A program made the position numbers and the translations under genes. From positions 27,182 through 91,181 of the forward strand of contig CAYHPN010000001.1 in the NCBI GenBank assembly GCA_964358765.1: DNA of 64,000 bases, in the 5' to 3' direction. This stretch comes from Candidatus Woesearchaeota archaeon (lineage in GTDB: Archaea > Nanobdellota > Nanobdellia > Pacearchaeales > GW2011-AR1). This document shows, one piece after another, positions 31,006 to 60,316 of the stretch (its first letter is position 1; each line of letters begins with the position of its first letter). The notes under the pieces are model-generated. The model searched no databases and was not told where the DNA came from. It saw nothing but the letters and a program-made list of their open reading frames with translations.

Positions 31006-31524
31006 TTAACAAGCCAACCTAAGCTCCAATCCTTTTTTTGCCCTATGCATTCTGGACTTAATGTCTGAATGAGATAAATTACAATCCTTTGAAATTACTT
31101 TATAATTTTGTCCGAGAAAATAATATCTTATAACTATTTCGCTTTGTTTTTTTGGCAACTCTGCTATAAAACGAATTAAATCCGAATAATCTGGTTTTTC
31201 ATCTATCTCGGTTTCTGATGATGGATATTTTATTAAAACTTGAGAATGTGGGTTATTATTTGATTCAACTAAATGAGAGAAAGAAATTTCATTCCTTCTT
31301 TTTATCTTTCTTTTATCGCTTAGAAAGTGATTTTTTGCGATTGTATACAGCCATGTTCTAAGTGATGCTCTCTTTTGATCAAAGCTTTCCTGCGAGTTTA
31401 AGGCCTTTATTATAGTTTCTTGAGCAATGTCCTGAGCATCAGAATATTGTGTAAATCGTCTTACAAAATTAAATAATCCTTCATAATGAGAAAGCAGTGT
31501 TTTTTCAAAAGATTCTGCAACCAT
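31006..31524 (-). CDS. ECF-type sigma-70 family RNA polymerase sigma factor (bacterial type)
   Basis: Region 2 reads DAQDIAQETIIKALNSQESFDQKRASLRTWLYTIAKNHFLSDKRK. Region 4.2 reads LPKKQSEIVIRYYFLGQNYKVISKDCNLSHSDIKSRMHRAKKGLELRL. Both fit the ECF consensus closely. Confidence 0.75.
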   Translation of the reverse strand: MVAESFEKTLLSHYEGLFNFVRRFTQYSDAQDIAQETIIKALNSQESFDQKRASLRTWLYTIAKNHFLSDKRKIKRRNEISFSHLVESNNNPHSQVLIKYPSSETEIDEKPDYSDLIRFIAELPKKQSEIVIRYYFLGQNYKVISKDCNLSHSDIKSRMHRAKKGLELRLAC

Positions 31525-36470: not shown

Positions 36471-36725
36471 ATGAAAATGAAGTTAACCAAAAAAGAAACG
36501 CAAGACAAAATTGAGATGTTCTTCAAAAAAGAGGAATTTACTCCGCAAGAAATGAAGAAAATAAAAAAATTGGCAATGAAATTTAATATAAAACTTGGAG
36601 CATATAAGAAAAATTATTGTAAAAAATGCCATAATAAATTAGAAGGGAAGATAAAGGTAAATAAAACATTTAAGACCGTTTCTTGTTCTTCCTGTGGATT
36701 TCTCAATAAAATAAAATTAAGATGA
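36471..36725 (+). CDS. RNase P protein component 4 (Rpp21/Rpr2-like zinc ribbon), short form
   Basis: YCKKCHNKLEGKIKVNKTFKTVSCSSCGF matches the Rpp21 pattern (R)YCKKCxxxLxxG...V...C..CG. It is 84 aa. Confidence 0.55.
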   Translation: MKMKLTKKETQDKIEMFFKKEEFTPQEMKKIKKLAMKFNIKLGAYKKNYCKKCHNKLEGKIKVNKTFKTVSCSSCGFLNKIKLR

Positions 36726-37748
36726 AAATAGACTCGTTAGTGTTTTATCCTTATAGGCATTTAACAAAGTTATAAAGTACCCTAATATGAGAGGCCCCAA
36801 TATCAATCCTAAAAGGCCAAAAACAAATATTCCTCCTATCATTCCAATTATTACTATTGCCTGAGACATTTTTGTTTTCTTGGAAATAAGATGAGCTCTA
36901 AGGAAGTTATCTATGGTTGAGACAAACAATAAGTTATAGGCAAGGAATAGAACTACTGTCAAAGGAGAAGCATTGCCCACTATTAAAAATACTGCAACCG
37001 GAAGATAAATTATCCCTACTCCTATCATAGGTATTGTTCCAAATACCATTGAAATGACTGTTAAGATAATTGCATTTGGAACTCCAACAATAAAGTAACT
37101 TATTCCTGCTAAAAGGCCTTGAAGTAAACCAATGGTAATCTGCCCATAAATTATAGAACCGGTTATATTTTTGAATTGAACGACTACTTTCTTTTCCTGA
37201 TCTTTATTTAATGGCGATAAACCTGAACAGAATTCTTTGAGTTTATCTAAATCTCTGAGAGTGAAGAAGAATACAAACCCAACAAGAAGAAGATGAAGAG
37301 CTATAGTTCCAAAATTTACTAATAAACCAAGTAAACTGTTTAAAATTGAAGTTCCGAATTTGCTTATCGAATTATTTAATGTTGTGCTTAATTGATTAAC
37401 CAGTTGATCAGAAGCATAAGGCAAGATAATTCTAATCATACTTCCTATATCTATCTTATCTGAAAGCTTGAATATTTCAAAGAATTGTTTAGACAAGATA
37501 GGTATGAGCAACCAAAATGATAAAACTATAATTATTATAATTAAAATGGTTATTATCCCTGCGGCCAGACTTTTGGATTTTACATATTTAAGAATGAATA
37601 AGTATATTGGTAGAAATATAAATGCTAGAATTAAACCTCCGAATATAGATAACATTATTGGCCTTAAAACTGAAAAGACCAGGATTAATAAAATAATTAA
37701 AATTCCAAAAACTAATATTTTTTTTGCATCCTTGTCCGTTAATTCCAT
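36717..37748 (-). CDS. AI-2E family transporter (PerM/UPF0118)
   Basis: It is 343 aa with about 8 TM helices and a central soluble loop. The N-terminal LRPIMLSIFGGLILAFIFLPIY and the overall layout fit AI-2E. Confidence 0.6.
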   Translation of the reverse strand: MELTDKDAKKILVFGILIILLILVFSVLRPIMLSIFGGLILAFIFLPIYLFILKYVKSKSLAAGIITILIIIIIVLSFWLLIPILSKQFFEIFKLSDKIDIGSMIRIILPYASDQLVNQLSTTLNNSISKFGTSILNSLLGLLVNFGTIALHLLLVGFVFFFTLRDLDKLKEFCSGLSPLNKDQEKKVVVQFKNITGSIIYGQITIGLLQGLLAGISYFIVGVPNAIILTVISMVFGTIPMIGVGIIYLPVAVFLIVGNASPLTVVLFLAYNLLFVSTIDNFLRAHLISKKTKMSQAIVIIGMIGGIFVFGLLGLILGPLILGYFITLLNAYKDKTLTSLFSS

Positions 37749-37776
37749 TTAAATGGAGAGAATATTAGATATTTAA

Positions 37777-37813
37777 ATATAATGTAAATTATAACAAAAA
37801 TAATTTCCATTGG
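37777..37813. promoter_or_regulatory. 37-nt imperfect palindrome (copy C), a candidate operator between divergent genes
   Basis: The sequence is atataatgtaaattat-aacaaaa-ataatttccattgg. The arms tgtaaattat and ataatttcca are 9/10 reverse-complementary with a 7-nt spacer. Near-identical cores lie at 30749-30785 and, inverted, at 29547-29583. Confidence 0.45.
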
Positions 37814-37871
37814 GGAAATAAAATTTAAAAATATTTATAAACACTGGATTATAAAAGTAATCTAAAATACA

Positions 37872-38576
37872 ATGAAAAACACTATCCATAAGATATTTAC
37901 TGACTGCGTTGATGAAGAAGTGCATACTGAATTCAATAAGTTCTCAAGAGGAGTATTTGAGAACAGATATTTACTTGAAGGCAAAAGACAGCCCGAGAAA
38001 TGGAGTATAAAAGCAAGTGCTGAATTTGCTAATTATTTTGTAAGAAGGGGGCTTGAGGGAGCAAGCGGAAAGATAAAAATGACAGGAGCCATTATCTCGA
38101 CTTTAGATTTGTCTAAAGATATTGATTTTGAGATCAGCGATACTAAAGGATATATGGGAATAAAGCAAAACCTGATAAATTCTGAAATTGATGCCAAGAA
38201 GATTATTACTTTGATGAATAAATATCCCAAAGTGTTTTTCGCTTTATCTTTTTCTTCTCCGGGTTTTGAGCTCAAGATTAAAGCTAAAGCTCCAAAAAGC
38301 GGAAAACCTGGAAGCAAGGGAGAAGAGGAGCCTAAAGCAGATTTTTGCTCACTAAAAACAACCAACAAAGCTATTGTTGAGGATTTATTTTTTGATATTA
38401 AAGAATTTAAAGAACTTATGATAAAACATACTTTAGAGATAAAAGAAATAGAACTGCCAAAAGGAGAGAAAGATCCTGTGAAGATGAGAGAGAATGCAAA
38501 GAGAAAAGGAATTATAAAAAGACTTATTATTCTTGAAGGCAATAAACAAATGAAAGAGAAGGCGTTTGTTATTTAG
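37872..38576 (+). CDS. Hypothetical protein (234 aa)
   Basis: The ORF has balanced composition. A TATA-like atatttataaac lies about 30 nt upstream. I recognised no family. Confidence 0.45.
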   Translation: MKNTIHKIFTDCVDEEVHTEFNKFSRGVFENRYLLEGKRQPEKWSIKASAEFANYFVRRGLEGASGKIKMTGAIISTLDLSKDIDFEISDTKGYMGIKQNLINSEIDAKKIITLMNKYPKVFFALSFSSPGFELKIKAKAPKSGKPGSKGEEEPKADFCSLKTTNKAIVEDLFFDIKEFKELMIKHTLEIKEIELPKGEKDPVKMRENAKRKGIIKRLIILEGNKQMKEKAFVI

Positions 38577-50734: not shown

Positions 50735-51319
50735 TTAATATTCAATTCCCTTTCTGGCTAATATGCCAACATCGTAAGGATGTTTTATTTTCTTTATTTC
50801 GGTAACAAGATCTGCATGCTCAAAGAGAGCTGGAAACGGAATATGTGAACCTGTAAGAATGAGTTCTTTGGTTTTGGGTTTAGATTTTATGAATTCAATT
50901 ACTTGTGATTCTTCTAAGAGATTCATTTGGACTGCATAAAGAATTTCGTCTGCTATAATTATATCATAATCTTGGTTTAGACAGGACTTTAAGTAGTTGA
51001 ATGCCTCTTCTACATTTGCCTTATGGTTTTCATGATTCTTATTTTTTACATACCAATCTCCAAGACCAAATCGCTTAAACGAAAAACTATTGAATTTTGA
51101 TAAAGATTTGATTTCTCCTGGAATTTGATCTTCTAAAGTAGAAGCTCCATTTTTCATGAACTGGACCAAATGTACACGATAGTTATTTCCGCATGCCCTT
51201 AGGGCTGTGCCTAAGGCAGAAGTTGTTTTTCCTTTTCCTGTGCCATAGAATATTTGTACAAGGCCGGGACCCACTGGTCCTTTGGTTGGTGGAAAGCTGA
51301 ATTTATGTTCTTGAGACAT
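50735..51319 (-). CDS. cobO: Cob(I)yrinic acid a,c-diamide (corrinoid) adenosyltransferase, CobA/CobO/BtuR type
   Basis: FYGTGKGKTTSALGTALRACGNNYRVHLVQFMK matches the pattern GxGKGKTTAAxGxxxRAxGxGxxVxxxQFxK, and DIIIADEILYA is also present. Confidence 0.75.
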   Translation of the reverse strand: MSQEHKFSFPPTKGPVGPGLVQIFYGTGKGKTTSALGTALRACGNNYRVHLVQFMKNGASTLEDQIPGEIKSLSKFNSFSFKRFGLGDWYVKNKNHENHKANVEEAFNYLKSCLNQDYDIIIADEILYAVQMNLLEESQVIEFIKSKPKTKELILTGSHIPFPALFEHADLVTEIKKIKHPYDVGILARKGIEY

Positions 51320-51451
51320 TCATATTTGAAATATAATATAATTATAGACTTTTCTATAGTAAAAGCATTTAAATATAATTGATTATTTAAAGTAATACAA
51401 AATAATATTAATTAAGATTAAATATTATTAAGTAACATAAAGTAATACAAA

Positions 51452-51601
51452 ATGAAAATAAGAATTTCCGCTACCATAGAAGAGGAAACTGATAAAATTC
51501 TAGATTCGTTGTTAAAAGATGGAGACTATAGAAACAAATCACATATCATTGAAAAAGCAATACAATTTTTAAAAGAGGCTAAAAATGTTAAAAAAAAATA
51601 A
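51452..51601 (+). CDS. Ribbon-helix-helix (CopG-like) small protein, 49 aa, below the ORF-track cutoff
   Basis: The translation is MKIRISATIEEETDKILDSLLKDGDYRNKSHIIEKAIQFLKEAKNVKKK, with a beta-strand then helix-helix pattern. It overlaps the next gene's ATG at 51585. Confidence 0.4.
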   Translation: MKIRISATIEEETDKILDSLLKDGDYRNKSHIIEKAIQFLKEAKNVKKK

Positions 51602-52367
51602 AAGAGGACAATTAGCAATTTGGGTAATACTTGGCGTAGTTGTAATCGCCTTTGTAATATTGATACTCTTACTCAATAAAGAGGGAAACCCCATAATTCC
51701 TGGAAGAAGCGAGGGAAGATACAATGTGGAATCTTACTTAAAGAGCTGCTTGTATAGAGATATTGAAGATGTTACTAGTAAAATGATTCCCCAGGGGGGG
51801 CTTTTGAATTTAAGAAGCATGGTCTTTTTCAATAACACAAACATTGAGTATATGTGTTATTATCAAGGATATTGGGATCCTTGCATAAATCAACACCCTG
51901 CACTTATACAAGAGATAAAAAAAGATATATTGAGTTATGCAACTCCAAAATTAAAATTGTGCATGGAAAGAATGAAAGAGGATTATAAGAGTCAAAATAT
52001 TAAAGTTGATCTTGATAATAATGAACCTGTGGTTAAAATAGATTTTTCTGATGATATAATAAAGATAGAATTAAATAAAAAAATGACTATTAAAAATAAT
52101 GGAGAAACTAAAACTTATGAAAATTTTGATTTCACTTTTAACTCTCCAATATATAATTTAGCAAATATTGCAATTGAAATTGCGGATCAGGAAGCAAAAT
52201 ATTGTTATTTTGAATATGTTGGATACAGTATAATTTATCCCCGTTATCAAATTTCTTTATTCACAATGTCTGATTCTAGCAGAATTTACACAATTAGAGA
52301 TTCAAAGAGCAAGAAAGAAATGAATATTGCAATAAGAGGTTGTGCATTGCCTCAGGGACTAGGATAA
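51585..52367 (+). CDS. Secreted or pilin-like protein with an archaeal class III (prepilin-type) signal peptide
   Basis: The N-terminus MLKKNKRGQ/LAIWVILGVVVIAFVILILLL has basic residues, then G-Q, then a hydrophobic stretch. Several Cys residues follow. Its stop lies 1 nt before the giant gene. Confidence 0.5.
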   Translation: MLKKNKRGQLAIWVILGVVVIAFVILILLLNKEGNPIIPGRSEGRYNVESYLKSCLYRDIEDVTSKMIPQGGLLNLRSMVFFNNTNIEYMCYYQGYWDPCINQHPALIQEIKKDILSYATPKLKLCMERMKEDYKSQNIKVDLDNNEPVVKIDFSDDIIKIELNKKMTIKNNGETKTYENFDFTFNSPIYNLANIAIEIADQEAKYCYFEYVGYSIIYPRYQISLFTMSDSSRIYTIRDSKSKKEMNIAIRGCALPQGLG

Positions 52368-52368
52368 A

Positions 52369-55300
52369 ATGAAAAGGGAAAAAAATATATTAAAAATAGA
52401 AGCAATCATACAGATTGTTTTATTAATAACTGCAATGTTTGCATTTTCTTATTTTATTGAAAGAATTTTTGATTTAAGTTCTGGAATTGGAATTGTGAGT
52501 GCGCAAGGAACAAGCGGAACACAAACAGCTGGGCTTACAAATGAAGAATTGACAACGTTAAGGCAAGGACTTGCAAATTATCCTGGGACAAATCAGGAAC
52601 TTAACAATACTTTAATTGATTTAGAAAGAAATGGATATTTATCAAGAAGCGATTTTACGAATGCCGAAATTGTTTCAAGAGCAATTAATGATTCATACAA
52701 CGATTATAATTCTGATATAGATTCTGGAAATACTGCAAATACTTGGCACAATCCATTTTCAACTTTAATACAAAGTTTTATTGGAAATGCGGAGATTAGC
52801 GGAGGAGACATACAACTAGGTTTATATGATTCAACTGGAGGGCTCAAAATGTGCGCTCAAACAAAAAACGGAAGATTATGCCAACCTTTTGCATCAAACA
52901 TATGCAATGATAATTGCAAAGAAAATTGCATTGATGTCGAACTGACAACTGATGTTCTTCCAGATGATAATGAATGTAAATTAGGATTATGTTATGATAG
53001 TGATGAAGGAAGTTGTGAGAGCAGGTCCCCTAAAACTGCCTGTGTTGAAAATAATGGGGACTGGTATAAAACAGGAGATGCTACAGGAGAAGGTCTTTGC
53101 AGACGAGGATGCTGTATAATAAATGATCAGGCATTATTTTTAACTAACAAACAATGTGAAAAAAGAAGTGCAAGTTTAGGTTTTGAACTAGGAGGAGATA
53201 ATGCAATATTTAATTCTGATATTAATGAGGAACCTGCTTGTATTGCCGAGGCGTATAACAGAAGAAACGCAAATTTAGACGGAGCATGCACTTTCCCACA
53301 CGAAGATGGAGGAAAACTAGATTGCAAATTCGTAAAGGGAGATGAGTGCTCAGACATTGGAGGGATATTTAATGCAGGAAAATTATGCTCAAATTCTGAA
53401 TTAAATACTAGATGTACAAAATCAAATTCAACAAATTGTGTAGAGGGACTAGATGAGATATACTGGATTGATTCATGTGGAAATAGAGAAAATATTTATG
53501 AGGGAAGCGATCAAGATAAAAAAGATTTAAGTTGGTTTAACGGACTAGTAAAAGCGAAAAATGAAAGCTGTATTCTTTCTTCTGGAGGAAATAATATTGC
53601 AAATCAAGGAACATGCGGAAACTGTGATAGATTTAGAGGAAGTATATGTAGTAATAAAACCATGGAGCCGATTGTGCAAAAATTAAATGATGATGATCAA
53701 AATTTTGTTTGTTTAGACATGGGATGTTATGATGATAATGGAAAAAGAATAAGAGAACATGGAGAGAGCTGGTGTGCGTATCAGAGTAAAATTGGAATAA
53801 ATGGATTGCTTGGTGAACAAAATAATAATATGGTTGTTACCAGTTTAATGAATATAGCAATCCCACAAATAGGGGGAGGAATACTTGGAGGAGACAGAGC
53901 AGTTGACACTCCTGGGAGCAGCCATTTTAGAGCAACATGTCTAAATGGAAAAATCCAAACTAGTGCTTGCGAAACTGGAAGGAGAGAAATTTGTGTTGAA
54001 TCAAGATCTGAAATATCGGGAAGTGATAAAGAATTTTCTCAGGCTGTTTGCAGAAAAAATAGAGCAATGGAATGCTTCCAATATAATCCAGGAAAGACAG
54101 AGAGTCAAGCAATAGGTTTAGCAGGACCACAGAAAGCATGGAAAATATTAAGGACGAAATTGCAATTAACTTGTGGTTTAGATCCAGATTGTTTTGTACT
54201 TGACGTAAATTTAGCTTCTGGCAAAGATGATACTTTTAAATTTTCTTATTGTGCGCCTAGATATAAATTAGGATTTGATTTAGAAAATTCAGAAAGTGGA
54301 AAGCAATTCTGTTCGCAGGCATCTCAAAAATGCACTGCAGTATTTGTAAAGGGCATAGGAGGATGGGAATGCAAGGCAAATTGTGATTGTGTAGAAGGAA
54401 GCGATCCATCAAGCGCTAAACCTTCACAAAAATTCGTAAAAGAAATGGGGAGATTCTGCTCAAGTTTAGGAGATTGCGGTTCTCAGGTCAGTTACACTGG
54501 AAAATTTCCTGGAGGAAAAGGATATTCTGTAACCATGGGCAAAGATCCACTTAAGCAATTACTACAATTTGGAAGTTCATTTAGTTTTTCAGATATGCTT
54601 GGAATGAATTCAATGTTGACAATTGGCGATGACATTCCTCGAAGAGGAGAATATATTCCTGCAAATGATACAAAACCTGGAGGGATGCTAGAGGGAGGAT
54701 TTAATAATTTCTTAAAAGATCAGGGAATACTTGGAATTTTTTCAATGATAGATTCACAATTAAATAATTTAATGAGTCAAGGAGGTGGGGGAAATTATGG
54801 CGTGCCTGATATTTCTGGAGTTGGTTCCCAGCAGTCGTCTTTGATTGCTCCTGGATTAGTTGCAGGAGGTGCAGGTGGAGCAATGCTGGGATATGGTTAT
54901 TTGACAAGTGGATTAACAGCTGAAACAACAACAATTGTAACGGGAACAATTGTAGAATCTGGTGTGGCTGGAGAAACTGCAGCTACTGTAGCCGTTACTG
55001 AAACTACTGCGACTTCTCTTGCAGGCTTTGGAGGAGCATTATTTGGCGCGGGAATTGGGGCAGCGACTGTTGGATTTTTAATAAAAATGCTTGGAATTGG
55101 CCCTGGACTGAGTCCAGGAGTTGCTTATGCAATGATGGGAACAGGAGCAATAGGCGGAGCAGTTGTGGGATATCAAGCATTTACTGGGGGTAGCGCAGCA
55201 ATTGCAGCAAATCCTATTGGAGTTATTTTATTTGTTGCAGTAATTGCGATATTAATAATATTCAAATTTATGGGAGTTGGAGAAGTGGAAGAAGTGGAAG

Positions 55301-56856
55301 TAAACTTTGAATGCAAACAATGGGAACCTCCTAGGAATGTGGATGCTAGTGATTGCAGATCGTGCGGAAATGATGATTTAAGTGATGGACAAAATAGTTT
55401 CCCATGTAATAAATATTCCTGCCAGGCTCTTGGGCAAGATTGCCAGTTTATAGAAGGAAGTGAGATACCTGGGAAGGGAGGAATATGCGAATATGCTCCG
55501 CAAAGTGATACTCAAGCGCCATTAATAACTGGACTTAGAGAAGAAATATTATCTGAGAATTTTGAATATGATAATGTTGACTTAAATGGCGAGAGAATAT
55601 TTGAAGTAAGAAAAACTGGCGAAGAGTGCTTGGATCAATTTGAAAGCGTTACTTTTGGATTTAATACAAATGAATATGCAACTAAATGCGCAATAAGTGG
55701 AAGTCCTAGAGAAAACACAGATATGATGGTTGCACTAAGTTCTGGACTAAATCATAGCTATACATTTAATTCAAGAAATTTAGATGCTTTAGGAGTTGTT
55801 GGACTAAAAGAAGAAGAAAGAAATGACTTTCAACTCTATTTAGTATGCCAGGATATAAGAGGAAATAATAATATTGCAAATGAATATATTGTAAAGATGT
55901 GCGTCATACCTAGAGATTTGACTCCAACTTTAGTTTTGAATGGTGATGAGTTAAATGATTTATTAATTGCAAATAATGCCAGAAATAAAACTGTGTCAAT
56001 TAATTTGAATGAACCTAGTGAGTGCAGATGGGATTATGCAGAGAAAACTTTTGACGAAATGGAAAATAATATGCAGTGCAATAGTAATATATTGCAATGC
56101 AGTACACTAATTCCTTTTGAAGAAGATGAAAAACAAATATGCATAAAATGCAGAGATCATCCAGAGTGGCAGGGAACTGAAAGAGAAAACGAAAGAAATG
56201 AAAATACTCAGTGTGTTGATGCATCCTTAATAAGAACAAATGCGTTAGAAATTACATCAATAACTCCAAATAATGAAACAATAAAGAAAGGAGCTAGCGA
56301 TTCTTCAATTGAGATTGTTGTAAACACTGCAGGAGGAGCCAATTATGGAGAAGCAGATTGCTATTATGATTTGGATAACTCTGGAAGGATATTATTTATG
56401 GAAACAGGAAATAGAGAAGAGCATAAACAAAATATTGGAGCAGGAACTTCAAGACTAGATGAAGGAAACCATAATTTGAAAGTATCATGCCAAGATAACG
56501 TAGGTAATAAAGCAGAAATTGAAACTACATTTAAATTAGATATTGATATGGTTGCTCCAAAAGTAGCAAGAATTTATGCCCAAGGCAATAGCTTAAATTT
56601 GATTGTAGACGAATCTGCTAATTGCGCATTTGTAAATAGTAAGCCAACGAATTCTAGTATATGCGAGTTTGATGTTAAAAAATGCTCTGAGATTAATGGA
56701 TGTGGAGAAATGAGTATTGATTTTACAAATGAAAATTATACAAAGTTTAGCGCCCCTTTTGATATTGGCAAAACATATTATATAAGATGCGTTGATGAGT
56801 ATGGAAACCAGCCTAGCCAATGCAATGCTAAAGTTATCAAAGGAATTTTTGTTTAA
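52369..56856 (+). CDS. Giant (1495 aa) Cys-rich surface/membrane protein. It has an N-terminal anchor, a Cys-rich ectodomain, an internal Gly/Ala/Thr-rich 4-TM bundle and a C-terminal region with three CxDxxGN beta-sandwich-like repeats.
   Basis: The N-terminal anchor is IEAIIQIVLLITAMFAFSYFI. The ectodomain carries dozens of Cys residues (aa ~165-700). The hydrophobic Gly-rich block at aa ~800-965 (nt ~54780-55270) has four helix-length segments. The C-terminal repeats end in YLVCQDIRGNNN, LKVSCQDNVGNKA and YIRCVDEYGNQP, which is HYR/Ig-like. Confidence 0.7.
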   Translation: MKREKNILKIEAIIQIVLLITAMFAFSYFIERIFDLSSGIGIVSAQGTSGTQTAGLTNEELTTLRQGLANYPGTNQELNNTLIDLERNGYLSRSDFTNAEIVSRAINDSYNDYNSDIDSGNTANTWHNPFSTLIQSFIGNAEISGGDIQLGLYDSTGGLKMCAQTKNGRLCQPFASNICNDNCKENCIDVELTTDVLPDDNECKLGLCYDSDEGSCESRSPKTACVENNGDWYKTGDATGEGLCRRGCCIINDQALFLTNKQCEKRSASLGFELGGDNAIFNSDINEEPACIAEAYNRRNANLDGACTFPHEDGGKLDCKFVKGDECSDIGGIFNAGKLCSNSELNTRCTKSNSTNCVEGLDEIYWIDSCGNRENIYEGSDQDKKDLSWFNGLVKAKNESCILSSGGNNIANQGTCGNCDRFRGSICSNKTMEPIVQKLNDDDQNFVCLDMGCYDDNGKRIREHGESWCAYQSKIGINGLLGEQNNNMVVTSLMNIAIPQIGGGILGGDRAVDTPGSSHFRATCLNGKIQTSACETGRREICVESRSEISGSDKEFSQAVCRKNRAMECFQYNPGKTESQAIGLAGPQKAWKILRTKLQLTCGLDPDCFVLDVNLASGKDDTFKFSYCAPRYKLGFDLENSESGKQFCSQASQKCTAVFVKGIGGWECKANCDCVEGSDPSSAKPSQKFVKEMGRFCSSLGDCGSQVSYTGKFPGGKGYSVTMGKDPLKQLLQFGSSFSFSDMLGMNSMLTIGDDIPRRGEYIPANDTKPGGMLEGGFNNFLKDQGILGIFSMIDSQLNNLMSQGGGGNYGVPDISGVGSQQSSLIAPGLVAGGAGGAMLGYGYLTSGLTAETTTIVTGTIVESGVAGETAATVAVTETTATSLAGFGGALFGAGIGAATVGFLIKMLGIGPGLSPGVAYAMMGTGAIGGAVVGYQAFTGGSAAIAANPIGVILFVAVIAILIIFKFMGVGEVEEVEVNFECKQWEPPRNVDASDCRSCGNDDLSDGQNSFPCNKYSCQALGQDCQFIEGSEIPGKGGICEYAPQSDTQAPLITGLREEILSENFEYDNVDLNGERIFEVRKTGEECLDQFESVTFGFNTNEYATKCAISGSPRENTDMMVALSSGLNHSYTFNSRNLDALGVVGLKEEERNDFQLYLVCQDIRGNNNIANEYIVKMCVIPRDLTPTLVLNGDELNDLLIANNARNKTVSINLNEPSECRWDYAEKTFDEMENNMQCNSNILQCSTLIPFEEDEKQICIKCRDHPEWQGTERENERNENTQCVDASLIRTNALEITSITPNNETIKKGASDSSIEIVVNTAGGANYGEADCYYDLDNSGRILFMETGNREEHKQNIGAGTSRLDEGNHNLKVSCQDNVGNKAEIETTFKLDIDMVAPKVARIYAQGNSLNLIVDESANCAFVNSKPTNSSICEFDVKKCSEINGCGEMSIDFTNENYTKFSAPFDIGKTYYIRCVDEYGNQPSQCNAKVIKGIFV

Positions 56857-57611
56857 AGTTTGAATTTAATATAATGTTTTAATAAAATAAAAATGGTGAT
56901 AAATAATAAAATTAAACTAAGCCACTGCCCAGCTGAAAGATATAAATAAGAAACATCGTCTCTTAAAAAATCAAGAAGGAATCTGCCTAGGGAAATGAAA
57001 AATAAGAATAGATAAAAAATAAAACCTTCTTTATATTTATTTGATTTTATTTTTAAGAGGAAAAATAATAACGCAAATCTCCCAATTGCTGAATAAAGTT
57101 GAATTGGGTATCTGCAACCTTGGATATCTGGAAAATTAATGCATATTGATGAAGTTGTGGTTTTTCCTAGGATTTCTGCATTTATTAAATTAGCAATTCT
57201 TCCTAATACTAAAAATAATGCAGCAGGCAAGATTATTACATCTGCTAAGCGCAAGAAATTAATTTTATTTTTTTTACAATAAAATAAAGAGAAAACTATT
57301 GCTCCAGCTAGACCTCCATGAAAACTTAATCCTCCGTTCCAAATGGATAATAATTCGTTTAAATGAACGGAAAAATAATCCAGATCCCAAAATACAAAGT
57401 GAAATATTCTTGCCCCGATTAAAATGGATATAAACAATAAAATAACGTAATTATAGACTTGTTCTTTTGATAGAGGAATTTCTTTATCCTTAGACGCTTT
57501 TAGAAGCACAAATAAAAGAGTGAGGAAACCTAAGATATAAACGAGAGAATAATAAGTGAGCTGTATAACTCCTATATGGAAGATAATTGGATTAATGTTT
57601 AATGTGAACAT
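56853..57611 (-). CDS. lgt: Prolipoprotein diacylglyceryl transferase (Lgt), bacterial type
   Basis: IWNGGLSFHGGLAGAIVF matches the Lgt signature GGLxxHGG. LVLGRIANLINAEILGKTT matches GRxxNFxNxExxG. It has seven TM helices and is 252 aa. Confidence 0.8.
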   Translation of the reverse strand: MFTLNINPIIFHIGVIQLTYYSLVYILGFLTLLFVLLKASKDKEIPLSKEQVYNYVILLFISILIGARIFHFVFWDLDYFSVHLNELLSIWNGGLSFHGGLAGAIVFSLFYCKKNKINFLRLADVIILPAALFLVLGRIANLINAEILGKTTTSSICINFPDIQGCRYPIQLYSAIGRFALLFFLLKIKSNKYKEGFIFYLFLFFISLGRFLLDFLRDDVSYLYLSAGQWLSLILLFITIFILLKHYIKFKL

Positions 57612-57694
57612 TCAACTAAGAGAAAATTGAATATTATAAAGATATATTAAAATCGGATACAAAGATTTATAAATATGTAAGTACATGTAAGTAC

Positions 57695-57892
57695 ATGAGT
57701 GATAGAAAGCGAATGAAGAAACTAAGAAAGAAAAGAATAGCGTCTGTTGAGAAACAGGTTGAGAAGCACGAAGATAAAATCAAGAATGAAAAGGGTAGAA
57801 AAGACACCACTAAAGACTATTGGAGAAAAGAAATTGATGAGAAATTCTTAAAACAAATTGATGAAGATGAAGAATATCTGGAGGATAAATAA
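57695..57892 (+). CDS. Small highly charged coiled-coil protein
   Basis: It is 65 aa and K/E/R/D-rich. A TATA-like gatttataaatat lies about 25-30 nt upstream. Its stop abuts the next gene. Confidence 0.35.
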   Translation: MSDRKRMKKLRKKRIASVEKQVEKHEDKIKNEKGRKDTTKDYWRKEIDEKFLKQIDEDEEYLEDK

Positions 57893-58672
57893 ATGGAAAT
57901 CCAAATAAAAAGAGCTGTAAAGGCGGGAAACTCTTCTGCAGTAATATTGCCACGATCTTGGCTTGATAAAGAGGTAAGAGTAGAACTAGTAAAAAAAACT
58001 CAAGAAATTATTTTATTTGATGTACTAAAGATTATAAAAAAATATATTGAAATTGACGGCATTATAGGAATCTATCTTGCTGGAAGCTATGCAAGGGGAG
58101 AAGAAGACGAAAATAGCGATATAGATATTTTAGTTATAACAAAAGAAAGAGATAGAGAGATAATTATAGAAGAAAATTATAATATATTAGTTATTTCAGA
58201 AGAATTATTAAAACAGAAACTGCAATTGGATTTATTTCCAATAGGGTCAATGATTAAAGAAGCTAGGCCTTTATTGAATGCCTATTACTTGAATAATTTG
58301 GAAGTAAAAATCACAAAGAAAAACGTTGATTGGTATATTAAGACTACAGAAGAAAAATTGAAATTAATTGAAAAAATCTTAATTAGATTTAAAAGCAAAA
58401 AATTAAGTGATAGGATTGCTTATACTCTTGTTTTAAGACTTAGAACTCTTTACATAATTGAAAAATTAATGAAAAATAAAGATTATCATAAAAAAGATTT
58501 TCTAGAAATAATAAGGAAAGCTTCTGGAGGAGAAAATGCTTATCAAAGTTATATTAGGGTAAAGAATAATGAAAAAGATAAACAGACTACAAATATTAAT
58601 GAAATTAGAGGATTGTATTTATCTCTTAAAGATAGGCTTGAGAAGATAAAAAAGGAATTGAAAGAATATTAG
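57893..58672 (+). CDS. AbrB/SpoVT-domain plus nucleotidyltransferase (MNT-like) fusion protein
   Basis: The AbrB motif is IQIKRAVKAGNSSAVILPRSWLDKEVRVELV. The Pol-beta-type NTase motif GS...DxD appears in IYLAGSYARGEEDENSDIDILVI. Confidence 0.6.
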   Translation: MEIQIKRAVKAGNSSAVILPRSWLDKEVRVELVKKTQEIILFDVLKIIKKYIEIDGIIGIYLAGSYARGEEDENSDIDILVITKERDREIIIEENYNILVISEELLKQKLQLDLFPIGSMIKEARPLLNAYYLNNLEVKITKKNVDWYIKTTEEKLKLIEKILIRFKSKKLSDRIAYTLVLRLRTLYIIEKLMKNKDYHKKDFLEIIRKASGGENAYQSYIRVKNNEKDKQTTNINEIRGLYLSLKDRLEKIKKELKEY

Positions 58673-58728
58673 ACTAATATTGTTAATATTAAATTAAAAA
58701 AATGTTCGATGATATCGATATTAATAAA

Positions 58729-59844
58729 TTATGCTGCCCTCAATTTCTTTGAATCGTGATACTTAATAATTTCTCTTTGTAAACCTTGTAAACCTCCAAT
58801 TCCCCTAAAAATCCATTGTCTAGGAGTACATGCTACTCTTACTCCATTTGTTTGGTAATCATTTCCTTCTATAACTACTCTTCCTACATTATATCCTTTA
58901 TCGTGTAAGTAATCCCGCAGTTGTTCAGTTTCTTGCCTTGATTCTGTTTTTATTGGAACTATAATTGTTGCAGGATTTCTTATTAAAGGAATATTATGTT
59001 CTGTTAAACGTTCTGTAAATCGAGAAGCTTGTTGGACACATTCGTCCGCAAGCTCACTCATCCCATTTTTAAGTCCAATATCTTGTACAGACTTGTACCA
59101 AACTGCAATTGGACTTGCATCTAGAGTAGAGTATCGTGTAAATTTTGAATGACTATAATAGGGTATGTCTTTAGAATTTAATTTTTGTTGTGGAGCAAGG
59201 AGAAGCGCTGAACCTGAAGCTCCTAAAAATTTATAGGGATCTATAGTAACTGAGTCAGATTCCATAATTGGAGATTTTCTTAAATAAGAAACTTGAGTTA
59301 ATACTCCTCCAAATGCTGCATCAATATGCAACCATGTTCCTTTTTCTCTTAATTCTTTAACGATTCTAAATTTTTCAATATTTTCCACATTTCCTAATTG
59401 AGTTGTTCCATGAGTTGAAACGATTGCTGCAATATCTCCTTCTTTACCGCTTATTGCTTGCAATAATTCTTTTTCTTCCACTTGATAATTATTAAAAGGA
59501 TCTGCATCTACAACTATTGTATCTAGACCAAGTTTATCACAAGCTTCTTTTATTGAAATATGAGTTAAATTGCTACAAACTACCTTGGATCTTTGCGTTG
59601 AATCTCTTGCTAATTGCAAAGCCCTTTCGTTTGCTAGCCAGGCAGAAGGTTCAATAATTCCTGAGAAATTCGGTGCACCAATAAGGTTTGTATGAAAATT
59701 GATAAAATATTCTGCGAGCTGTTGAGCCTGAGTATCTCTTGCATTTGCTATATTAACATTTCTCCATCCATTAGCAAAATCTAATGCACTTTGAGTGGTA
59801 GTTCCGATAAGTGTTTCAAAATCTACTGTTTTTTGTTTAGCCAT
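58729..59844 (-). CDS. PLP-dependent group II decarboxylase (MfnA / aspartate-tyrosine decarboxylase-like)
   Basis: WLHIDAAFGG and SVTIDPYKFLGASG (PLP lysine) match the group II pattern HVDAAxGG and SxxxxxHK. The residue before the Lys is Tyr here rather than His. It is 371 aa. Confidence 0.6.
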   Translation of the reverse strand: MAKQKTVDFETLIGTTTQSALDFANGWRNVNIANARDTQAQQLAEYFINFHTNLIGAPNFSGIIEPSAWLANERALQLARDSTQRSKVVCSNLTHISIKEACDKLGLDTIVVDADPFNNYQVEEKELLQAISGKEGDIAAIVSTHGTTQLGNVENIEKFRIVKELREKGTWLHIDAAFGGVLTQVSYLRKSPIMESDSVTIDPYKFLGASGSALLLAPQQKLNSKDIPYYSHSKFTRYSTLDASPIAVWYKSVQDIGLKNGMSELADECVQQASRFTERLTEHNIPLIRNPATIIVPIKTESRQETEQLRDYLHDKGYNVGRVVIEGNDYQTNGVRVACTPRQWIFRGIGGLQGLQREIIKYHDSKKLRAA

Positions 59845-59867
59845 AGTTTCATATAAATAAAGATAAT

Positions 59868-60161
59868 TTATCTGTTGCCAATTCTTTGAGATAAATATTT
59901 TACAGTTTGTGCAATATTTCCATCTATTAAATTCTCTGCATCTTCATCCGAAATATGTAAATCGTAAGCATCTTCAATTTTTATTATTGCACTAATAGCA
60001 TAAATACCTCTACAACCGCCTTCATATTTATCACAAAATGCTCCTATTGTAGGTGAATTTAATACTTCTTGCACATCTATTTCTTTTCTTAAAAAGCCGC
60101 CTACTGAATTAGTTACCAATCGGGCAATACCGTCCTTAGTTATTTCTCTTGTTTGTGTCAT
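59868..60161 (-). CDS. Hypothetical protein (97 aa) upstream of the decarboxylase
   Basis: The ORF lies 23 nt upstream of the decarboxylase start on the same strand. I recognised no family. Confidence 0.35.
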   Translation of the reverse strand: MTQTREITKDGIARLVTNSVGGFLRKEIDVQEVLNSPTIGAFCDKYEGGCRGIYAISAIIKIEDAYDLHISDEDAENLIDGNIAQTVKYLSQRIGNR

Positions 60162-60316
60162 TTTACGTCTCCTCCTTTCACTGCTCTTTCTTGATATTGA
60201 TTTGTGTTTTTCATATATTTGACAGAAAGTAGAAGTATTTAAATCTTTCCATCTGTCACTACTAGTACATTACTACAAAACGAAAGATTTATATAGTAGT
60301 TCTGACTATATAATAT

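Follow-up and report, generated by a model that had tools for sequence, protein, structure and literature searches.

What does a 1495-residue, Cys-rich membrane protein do behind a small regulator and a pilin-like protein in the genome of an uncultivated archaeon? This question was raised by three contiguous genes in a stretch of 64,000 nucleotides from a Candidatus Woesearchaeota archaeon (contig CAYHPN010000001.1; hereafter the window), which encode a 49-aa ribbon-helix-helix (RHH) protein, a 260-aa protein (p260), and the 1495-aa protein (the giant). Our analysis gave about an even chance to the view that this trio is the first cassette of a conserved cell-envelope cluster of DPANN archaea and acts as a surface binding or anchoring complex. 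An adhesion or envelope function is most likely, and the cluster is a good but unproven candidate for the attachment of these cells to their partners. It is a lineage-specific chromosomal cluster whose structural products, that is, all but the small regulators, appear to be extracytoplasmic.

An open reading frame (ORF) listing placed the three genes, all on the + strand, exactly where a first-pass annotation made from the sequence alone had put them. The RHH gene (51452..51601) overlaps the p260 gene (51585..52367) by 17 nt, and the giant gene (52369..56856) begins 1 nt past the p260 stop, so that the contiguity noted earlier is that of an operon-like trio. The first product matched the Pfam profile RHH_1 (PF01402) with 27 bits, above the curated cutoff of 20.5 (E = 4e-6), and its residues 4-42 aligned to profile positions 1-38 of 39, confirming that it is an RHH protein of the CopG family. 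Orthologues in relatives lie at the same position and are 51-84% identical, and at other loci a winged helix-turn-helix (wHTH) protein replaces or accompanies it. Given its family and its place at the operon head, it is presumed to be a transcriptional regulator. Two perfect copies of a 16-nt direct repeat, TAAAGTAATACAAAAT, were observed 50 nt apart at 51388-51403 and 51438-51453 (span 51388..51460); both lie within the divergent promoter region, and the second overlaps the RHH start codon. The repeat is a candidate operator or promoter element, possibly the operator of the RHH protein. As for the giant, the identical 1495-aa ORF was also found in a separate assembly, on a contig from Hainich groundwater, and full-length orthologues were found in many genomes, indicating that the ORF is intact and no assembly artefact.

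The anatomy of the giant was derived from an alignment of 120 homologues and from the AlphaFold model of a full-length 1189-aa homologue (P0072), which was modelled with the family alignment and mapped to the residues of the window protein. The mean predicted local distance difference test score (pLDDT) of this model was 79.4, with ~85-90 in the N-terminal Cys-rich module (N module), ~90 in the C-terminal one (C module), and 62-75 in the helices of the hydrophobic block between them. The 68 Cys residues of the giant divide into 43 within aa 46-800 and 25 within aa 975-1495, the stretch from 800 to 975 having none, in agreement with the large N-terminal ectodomain with dozens of Cys residues described before. 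Thirty-nine Cys residues of the N module and 21 of the C module were at least 88% conserved across the 120 homologues. Because of this conservation and the identical ORF in the independent assembly, the architecture is far beyond chance.

The giant starts with a signal anchor (aa 2-30, nt 52372..52458), as the first-pass annotation had proposed, which was seen both in a logo of 86 giants and 34 separate C-module proteins and as a helix in the model. The logo consists of a basic cluster, five hydrophobic residues, an invariant E/Q, and then I-x-L-L-I...F-A-F-S-Y. The insertion free energy (dG) of this segment was about 0 by a simple estimate on the Hessa scale, and by this estimate the anchor is an autonomous membrane helix. 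The position equivalent to prepilin -1 is mostly K/R, with no G/A/S, and the class III signal-peptide pattern is thereby missing; the N-terminus shares a polar residue with pilins but is a signal anchor and departs from the canonical class III signal. A conserved V-S-A motif follows (aa 43-45, nt 52495..52503; S and A at least 90% conserved) and matches the end of the Sec signal peptides (VSA, ISA, or VYA) in paralogues consisting of the N module only, and thus may be a signal-peptidase-I-type site or a relic thereof. Between this motif and the N module lies a lineage-specific insert without Cys (aa 47-158, nt 52507..52842; alignment occupancy 0.10-0.45), and homologue matches to the giant begin at ~aa 148-162. 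The N module itself (aa 159-748, nt 52843..54612) is a disulfide-rich ectodomain with the 39 conserved Cys residues and the signature motifs YWxDSCGNxENIY, CGNC, NGESWC, and SLGDCG, and is the best conserved part of the giant. It had no match in Pfam or among PDB sequences, and NCBIfam, PHROGs, and PADLOC were also empty for it. BLAST detected no internal repeats within the N or the C module. A variable linker modelled with low confidence (aa 749-824, nt 54613..54840) then leads into the hydrophobic block.

Beyond the block, the C module opens with a juxtamembrane strand (EVEEVEVNFEC) and a small domain with seven invariant Cys residues (aa 973-1084, nt 55285..55620), followed by four tandem Ig-like beta-sandwiches (aa 1093-1490, nt 55645..56838), which were recognized in the model, by Foldseek, and through the Pfam family Big_13. 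Mapping from P0072 placed Ig-like domains 1-4 at aa 1093-1180, 1189-1263, 1283-1391, and 1399-1490. The first-pass annotation had described this region as three repeats ending in CxDxxGN. The three motifs were indeed found there, at aa 1160, 1374, and 1474, where they close Ig-like domains 1, 3, and 4; domain 2 closes with CxDxP, and the layout is accordingly one of four Ig-like domains plus the small Cys domain. The proposed HYR/Ig-like character held for the Ig-like, adhesion-type folds and failed for HYR, whose profile gave no match at E <= 0.1 in the window giant or in any of 38 family members. Instead, the family scored as Big_13 (PF19077), which matched 25 of the 38 members (best E = 7e-7) and, with 33.4 bits, a C-module paralogue, while the window giant itself reached 15.5 bits, below the cutoff of 27. 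The S_layer_C profile had no match in the giant family. Foldseek with the giant model returned only tandem Ig/FN3 arrays, over 400-600 columns and with E values down to 6e-12 (PDB) and 9e-13 (viral). These included receptor phosphatase ectodomains, cadherins, titin, the S-layer (HPI) protein of Deinococcus radiodurans, the GhpA grappling hook, large adhesins, and phage J or tail (host-recognition) proteins.

The hydrophobic block is an uncharged Gly/Ala/Thr-rich region (aa ~825-967, nt 54841..55269), in which the conservation profile and the P0072 model located four helices. Helix 0 (aa 825-844) carries G829/G833/G836, helix A (aa 886-907) carries G889-G893-G897 and is followed by KxLGIG, helix B (aa 913-937) carries G926-G930-G934, and helix C (aa 944-967) is strongly hydrophobic and followed by KxMGVG. 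Column statistics and the model helices thus both supported the four helix-length GxxxG segments that had been read from the sequence. G833 was 100% conserved, and the G889/G893/G897 and G926/G930/G934 positions were 57-82% Gly, or higher if small residues were counted; the helices therefore show the conserved (G/A/S)xxxGxxxG spacing of glycine zippers. Charged residues were almost absent over ~90 positions, and K-x-L-G-[IV]-G recurred after helices A and C. The recurrence is of the motif only; an origin of the block from two duplicated hairpins, each ending in KxLGIG, was rejected by an hhalign probability below 1%. Curated Gly-zipper Pfam families matched just one of the 38 members (E = 0.083), and the block had no match in Pfam, NCBIfam, PHROGs, or PADLOC. 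The acidic EVEEVEV stretch that had been called a hinge does follow the block in the giant, but most family members have K-T-K at this place, and the acidic form is a peculiarity of the window protein.

ORFs were next called and clustered in 87 related loci. This comparison revealed that the giant is a fusion of N and C modules that also exist as separate genes, designated N' and C'. The N' proteins (500-640 aa) match giant aa ~148-725 and have an ordinary Sec signal peptide, whereas the C' proteins (700-930 aa) match aa ~896-1490 and carry the same IxxxE anchor as the giant. Across the 87 loci, 93 fused, 68 N-only, and 46 C-only genes were counted. The canonical gene order was p260, giant, p260', N', a lipobox protein, C', c4, c7, c11, and c15. 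Upstream of the cluster lie either PCNA or the AI-2E, c5, and CobA-like genes, and then a wHTH and/or RHH regulator. The products of c4, c7, c11, and c15 (~166, 311, 174, and 167 aa) all start with [KR]-[GA]-[Q/F] and a hydrophobic helix and had no Pfam match. In many loci, a divergent wHTH regulator of the HVO_A0114 type and a gene for an ~800-aa S-layer protein (S_layer_C, E = 8.5e-12) lie downstream of the cluster, for example at L052 22014-24452 and L063 23505-26048; no homologue of that gene was found in the window.

The window trio is only the first half of this system. It is followed by a convergent Lgt gene, as in the nearest relative (57% identity), where the second cassette lies ~4.5 kb further on. 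A Hainich contig that is 100% identical to window positions 57118-64000 extends past the window end, and its continuation (L090 1-1763, corresponding to window ~64001-65763) carries the second cassette, with genes for p260', a membrane protein of 93 aa, and the first part of an N' protein that has a Sec signal. The 255-aa p260' (MGKRGQ followed by VTIY...) starts ~221 nt beyond position 64000. By this contig overlap, the organism has both cassettes, separated by an ~7.4-kb insertion. The Lgt gene, which encodes a bacterial-type prolipoprotein diacylglyceryl transferase (56853-57611 on the - strand; Pfam E = 3e-53), abuts the giant gene tail-to-tail, and this arrangement is kept in the nearest relative (L088 13446-14285). 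A 94-aa lipobox protein is also encoded in the window (60317-60601, +), and a lipobox protein stands between N' and C' in the canonical cluster; bacterial-style lipoprotein maturation in a DPANN archaeon may be tied to the surface system. A 532-aa protein without a Pfam match (60603-62201, -) may also belong to the cell surface; it is 52% identical to one at the same position in the nearest relative, whose copy is Cys-rich and begins with a signal peptide.

Gene order further linked p260 to the N module. For 82 of the 87 giants (94%) and 60 of the 66 N' genes (91%), a p260-type gene was located on the same strand no more than two genes upstream, usually overlapping its partner or within 20 nt of it (median gaps, 1 nt for giants and -4 nt for N'). 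In contrast, it was never directly upstream of a C' gene in the 87 loci. These results showed that p260 is genetically coupled one-to-one to the N module, and they bear out the co-occurrence of pilin-like gene and giant that the first-pass annotation had asked about.

The p260 protein begins with MLKKNKRGQ and then a hydrophobic helix, and its prepilin-type (class III-like) signal (aa 1-9; KKNKRG followed by Q) was confirmed by a motif logo of 146 sequences, with K at -3 in 78%, R/K at -2 in 93%, G/A/S at -1 in 99%, and Q at +1 in 100%. It thus has the [KR]-[GAS], Q, and hydrophobic helix of class III signal peptides. Such a consensus is the one recognized by archaeal prepilin peptidases, and Gln at +1 is typical of Epd/DUF361-type pilins. 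The AlphaFold model (pLDDT 90.5) shows a transmembrane helix (aa 6-32, nt 51600-51680), a flexible tether (aa 33-47; disordered at aa 34-43) whose length varies in the family alignment, and an alpha/beta globular domain (aa 48-260, nt 51726-52364) with six invariant Cys residues. The protein is exported, and its tethering helix at the N-terminus carries a strict motif of the prepilin-peptidase type. Its conserved Cys residues are enough for two to three disulfides, and two subtypes were distinguished: one with six Cys residues accompanies giants, and one with four accompanies N'. The description of p260 as pilin-like held for the signal and did not extend to the fold. Foldseek found no PDB structure at E <= 1e-3 (best E = 0.012, TM score below 0.2) and no pilin in the top 50; the sequence profile had no PDB match, a hit to baculovirus ODV-E27 (E = 0.43) being non-significant. 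There was likewise no Pfam family for p260, no recurrent Pfam signal across its family, and nothing in NCBIfam, PHROGs, or PADLOC. We rejected p260 as a structural type IV pilin because its helix is detached from the head by the variable tether and no pilin fold was matched; p260 is prepilin-like in its signal only.

One 1135-aa protein from a public collection (P0063) appears to be an in-frame fusion of p260 residues 5-207 with the giant anchor and N module. It could be either a natural Rosetta-stone fusion backing an interaction of p260 with the giant or an assembly or frameshift artefact; as the last ~50 p260 residues are missing, it was dropped as evidence.

Cys parity then provided information on how the modules are joined. 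Odd Cys counts were found in 89% of N'-only proteins (39, 41, 43, 45, or 47) and 95% of C'-only proteins (mostly 21), whereas 91% of fused giants (62, 64, or 66) and 88-100% of p260, c4, c7, c11, and c15 proteins had even counts. These are raw counts of related, and hence not independent, sequences, but the parity holds over varying totals. Cys residues are gained and lost in pairs, as disulfides would be, with one unpaired Cys per module. Because N' and C' are odd and the fused giants are even, the simplest reading of the counts is a single N-C disulfide, which would lie within one chain in the giant and link two chains where N' and C' are separate proteins.

The parity also bears on topology. 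The first-pass annotation had placed both Cys-rich domains outside the cell, and this placement was supported by the parity, by the Ig-like folds, by the cleavable-type Sec signal peptides of N' proteins, and by four relatives (P0112, P0113, P0116, and P0117) in which an ~100-aa linker without any hydrophobic block joins the N and C modules; at least P0113 begins with a Sec signal. With both modules outside, the block would have to cross the membrane an even number of times. We infer that the anchor is oriented N-in and that the block returns the chain an even number of times; four crossings would set both KxLGIG motifs at the outer face, and two crossings are also possible.

The giant search recovered 133-160 clusters at 90% identity, and the named ones were all annotated as "hypothetical protein" from Pacearchaeota or Nanoarchaeota metagenome-assembled genomes (MAGs); a profile-based search gained almost nothing over the single-sequence search. 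The p260 search gave 148 clusters, likewise of hypothetical proteins from such MAGs. Scanning one genome per GTDB species yielded at least 503 matching stretches, and the best 80 of them all came from Pacearchaeota, Woesearchaeota, Nanoarchaeota, or "archaeon" MAGs. A phmmer search with the N module against 1.84 billion representative proteins gave 974 clusters (50% identity) at E <= 1e-3 and 374 at E <= 1e-30, and the 150 clusters listed had giant-like or N'-like lengths or were shorter, likely fragments. As judged from the sequence searches, the family is confined to Pacearchaeota/Woesearchaeota/Nanoarchaeota-type DPANN archaea, and homologues are not widespread in free-living organisms with a known function. 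The claim that no characterized homologue exists also stood in the family, sequence, and structure searches: the N module and block are without relatives outside the family, and the p260 fold is without a solved relative. No description of the cluster was found in the literature searched, whose coverage was incomplete.

Taken together, we propose the following arrangement. The RHH protein would regulate the operon at the transcriptional level. Binding to a partner surface would be the task of the Ig-like stalk together with the N module, and this surface could belong to a host or to the S-layer or envelope of the archaeon itself; the glycine-zipper block would serve as a membrane anchor and as a helix-packing or oligomerization unit. 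One inter-module disulfide would hold the N and C modules together, and p260 would either accompany the N module as a stoichiometric co-subunit or help to assemble it. The second, split copy (p260', N', the lipoprotein, and C') and the four small prepilin-like proteins would join the complex, and their presence suggests that the full system is related to type IV filament-associated adhesin modules. This reading agrees with three observations. First, across relatives the surface genes are 30-49% identical, compared with 63-78% for the adjacent CobA-like gene, which corresponds to about twice the rate of divergence. Second, Pacearchaeota have been reported as strongly host-attached and unusually strongly associated with larger cells (bioRxiv 10.1101/2020.05.14.094862). 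Third, Ig-rich adhesin-like and S-layer-like accessory proteins recur in archaeal type IV filament loci (bioRxiv 10.64898/2026.04.22.720090).

Several points weigh against this proposal. The strong conservation of the N module points to a conserved ligand, or to the envelope of the cell itself, rather more than to a variable receptor on a host. The Foldseek searches used the full-length giant model, for which Ig-like matches dominated and the Ig array alone was matched. No filament ATPase, platform protein, or prepilin peptidase was detected by Pfam in the scanned window ORFs or by signature motifs in ~1.7 Mb of related loci (the 87 loci), and one paper describes type IV pilus components as missing in DPANN. 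For the block, helices 0, A, and B were only marginally hydrophobic (median Hessa dG +4.5, +2.3, and +3.2 kcal/mol), with helix C (-2.9) being autonomous by this estimate; the pLDDT of 62-75 gives its modelled helices only moderate confidence; and the residues after helix C are often basic, which conflicts with the positive-inside rule if they face outward.

The conservation of the N module would also suit a housekeeping envelope scaffold that anchors the cell's own S-layer or pseudo-periplasmic space, like SlaB-type stalks, without binding a host, and we consider this explanation unlikely. It accords with the S-layer gene that adjoins the cluster in many loci, with the divergent regulator between them, with the very wide spread of the family within its lineage, with the D. 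radiodurans HPI protein among the structural matches, and with the S-layer-like Ig proteins that accompany archaeal filament loci. However, the S-layer adjacency is seen in only a subset of loci, which includes neither the window nor its nearest relatives, the giant has no S-layer family match, and the sequences diverge more than one would expect of a protein with a purely structural role.

Glycine zippers occur preferentially in helices that form channels. A channel or membrane-bridging device, in which the zipper helices of several giants (or of giant and C') would form a pore docked to the host or, in a variant, the hydrophobic block would insert into the host membrane, is an idea raised by the conserved GxxxGxxxG of helices A and B and the G-x3-G-x2-G of helix 0 within ~90 near-uncharged residues; we rate it as quite unlikely. 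The lifestyle of these archaea needs exchange with the host, and the only PDB sequence match of the family profile was the type III secretion system (T3SS) translocator AopB over the block. Nevertheless, that match is compositional (bias score 5.9) and not significant (E = 0.43), and the motif by itself is as compatible with ordinary packing of helices as with a channel. Among the top 50 Foldseek matches in the PDB and viral libraries there was no pore-former, no class I or II fusogen or fusexin, and no T3SS translocator. Helix C, with a dG of about -3, is hydrophobic enough to be captured in the producer's membrane during Sec export, and the members that keep both modules without the block indicate that it is not essential to the core function. 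A class I fusion peptide was rejected as well, given no fusogen hits, no modelled coiled coil, and membrane helices N-terminal of a beta-rich module.

A bona fide type IV filament (pilus or pseudopilus) assembled by machinery from elsewhere in the genome, with p260, p260', c4, c7, c11, and c15 as minor pilins and the giants as PilY1-like adhesins at its base or tip, is an explanation we regard as distinctly improbable. Six proteins per full cluster do carry [KR]-[GAS]-[Q/F] and a hydrophobic helix, the sizes of 166, 311, 174, and 167 aa recall sets of four minor pilins, and the giant anchor has a pilin-like polar residue at position 5. Filament systems, including Epd-type System 1, are also reported in some DPANN. 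On the other hand, the p260 helix is parted from a non-pilin globular domain by a disordered tether of variable length, extrusion into a filament is impossible for a protein that has five membrane helices, signature motifs revealed no ATPase, platform protein, or peptidase near any of the 87 loci, and no Pfam pilin family was matched. An intercellular contact machine of a previously unknown kind, in which disulfide-linked ectodomains on an oligomerizing zipper bundle and prepilin-like subunits would form a gated conduit or junction between DPANN cell and host, seems to us just as doubtful as the filament. Finally, a virus or mobile-element relic (an attachment or fusion protein with a CopG-like regulator) or a defence system is essentially excluded: RHH/CopG regulators are common on archaeal viruses and plasmids and phage tail and host-specificity proteins were among the structural matches, but those matches are generic Ig/FN3 arrays, a search of 2.9 million viral contigs gave no relatives, neither PHROGs nor PADLOC gave a match, synteny with PCNA or with the CobA-like and AI-2E genes is stable across dozens of species, and the window ORF scans showed no integrase or tRNA context.

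Returning to the surface binding or anchoring complex, we compared it with known systems. Archaeal type IV filament-associated adhesin modules are the closest described theme. The loci of such filaments (System 1/Epd, subsystems 4A/4B/4G) similarly encode several small proteins with [KR]-[GAS] and a helix, have a large surface protein rich in Ig folds in the cluster, and occasionally adjoin an S-layer gene. Epd-type pilins carry Gln at +1, as does p260. Unlike those loci, the present one has no ATPase, platform protein, or peptidase; in place of a pilin head, p260 carries on its tether a globular domain whose fold had no match; the giant is polytopic (five helices) with a unique 39-Cys N module, and the cluster proteins match no arCOG or Pfam pilin or adhesin family. 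The Sulfolobus bindosome was compared as a case of class III proteins that do not form filaments. Bacterial minor-pilin and PilY1-type tip adhesin modules and modular pilins, alike in organization only, also have about four small pilin-like genes beside a presumed adhesive protein of >1000 aa, and the polar residue of the giant anchor occupies the pilin "E5" position; the giant differs in lacking a beta-propeller, a vWA domain, and the G at -1, in its internal membrane helices, and in being archaeal. With tandem Big_13/FN3-type adhesins, S-layer proteins, and phage host-recognition proteins, the C module shares its four consecutive beta-sandwiches, although the Ig array of the giant comes after membrane segments and is apparently disulfide-linked to a Cys-rich module. 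The block resembles channel- or pore-forming zipper helices and the AopB/YopB translocators in the GxxxGxxxG of two helices and a Gly/Ala-rich hairpin-like region, but no significant sequence or fold match accompanies the likeness.

The Pacearchaeota and Woesearchaeota, which are abundant but uncultivated and have minimal genomes, presumably live attached to other cells, and no attachment apparatus is known for them. The cluster is a strong candidate, as it is lineage-specific, present in hundreds of species representatives, apparently extracytoplasmic in its products, and more diverged than its housekeeping neighbor. Three of its parts, namely, the fold of p260, the N module with its 39 Cys residues, and the zipper block, have no characterized relatives, and the cluster offers concrete targets for metaproteomics, structural work, and cryo-electron tomography. 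Moreover, the Cys-parity and gene-pairing rules predict a specific subunit organization, in which p260 pairs with the N module and a disulfide connects the latter to the C module.

The neighbors of the trio in the window are housekeeping genes, including those for an ATP-dependent DNA ligase, the CobA-like P-loop protein, CoA biosynthesis, and ApbE. The CobA/BtuR-like protein (ATP:corrinoid adenosyltransferase family; 50735-51319, -; E = 1e-52) is encoded divergently upstream of the cluster in one clade, which is odd for organisms with a minimal metabolism. The AI-2E transporter and c5 pair, directly flanking in relatives, is at 36717-38576 in the window, ~12 kb from the CobA-like gene (50735), which indicates an ~12-kb insertion (38.6-50.7 kb) carrying the ApbE, ferric-reductase-like, CoA-biosynthesis, and DNA ligase genes. 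Farther upstream, a 172-aa extracytoplasmic function (ECF)-type sigma factor is encoded at 31006-31524 (-), with sigma-70 region 2 at E = 5e-15 and region 4_2 at E = 6e-11; such a factor is unexpected in an archaeal genome and was likely acquired horizontally. The first part of the window (~1-28700) is occupied by a block of envelope and glycan genes, which encode three to four GDSL-like acylhydrolases, two MBOAT acyltransferases, GT1/GT2/GT9 glycosyltransferases, a PMT_2 mannosyltransferase, a carbamoyltransferase, FkbH-like and SDR proteins, and SecD/SecF, the SecD-like protein having a PDZ domain.

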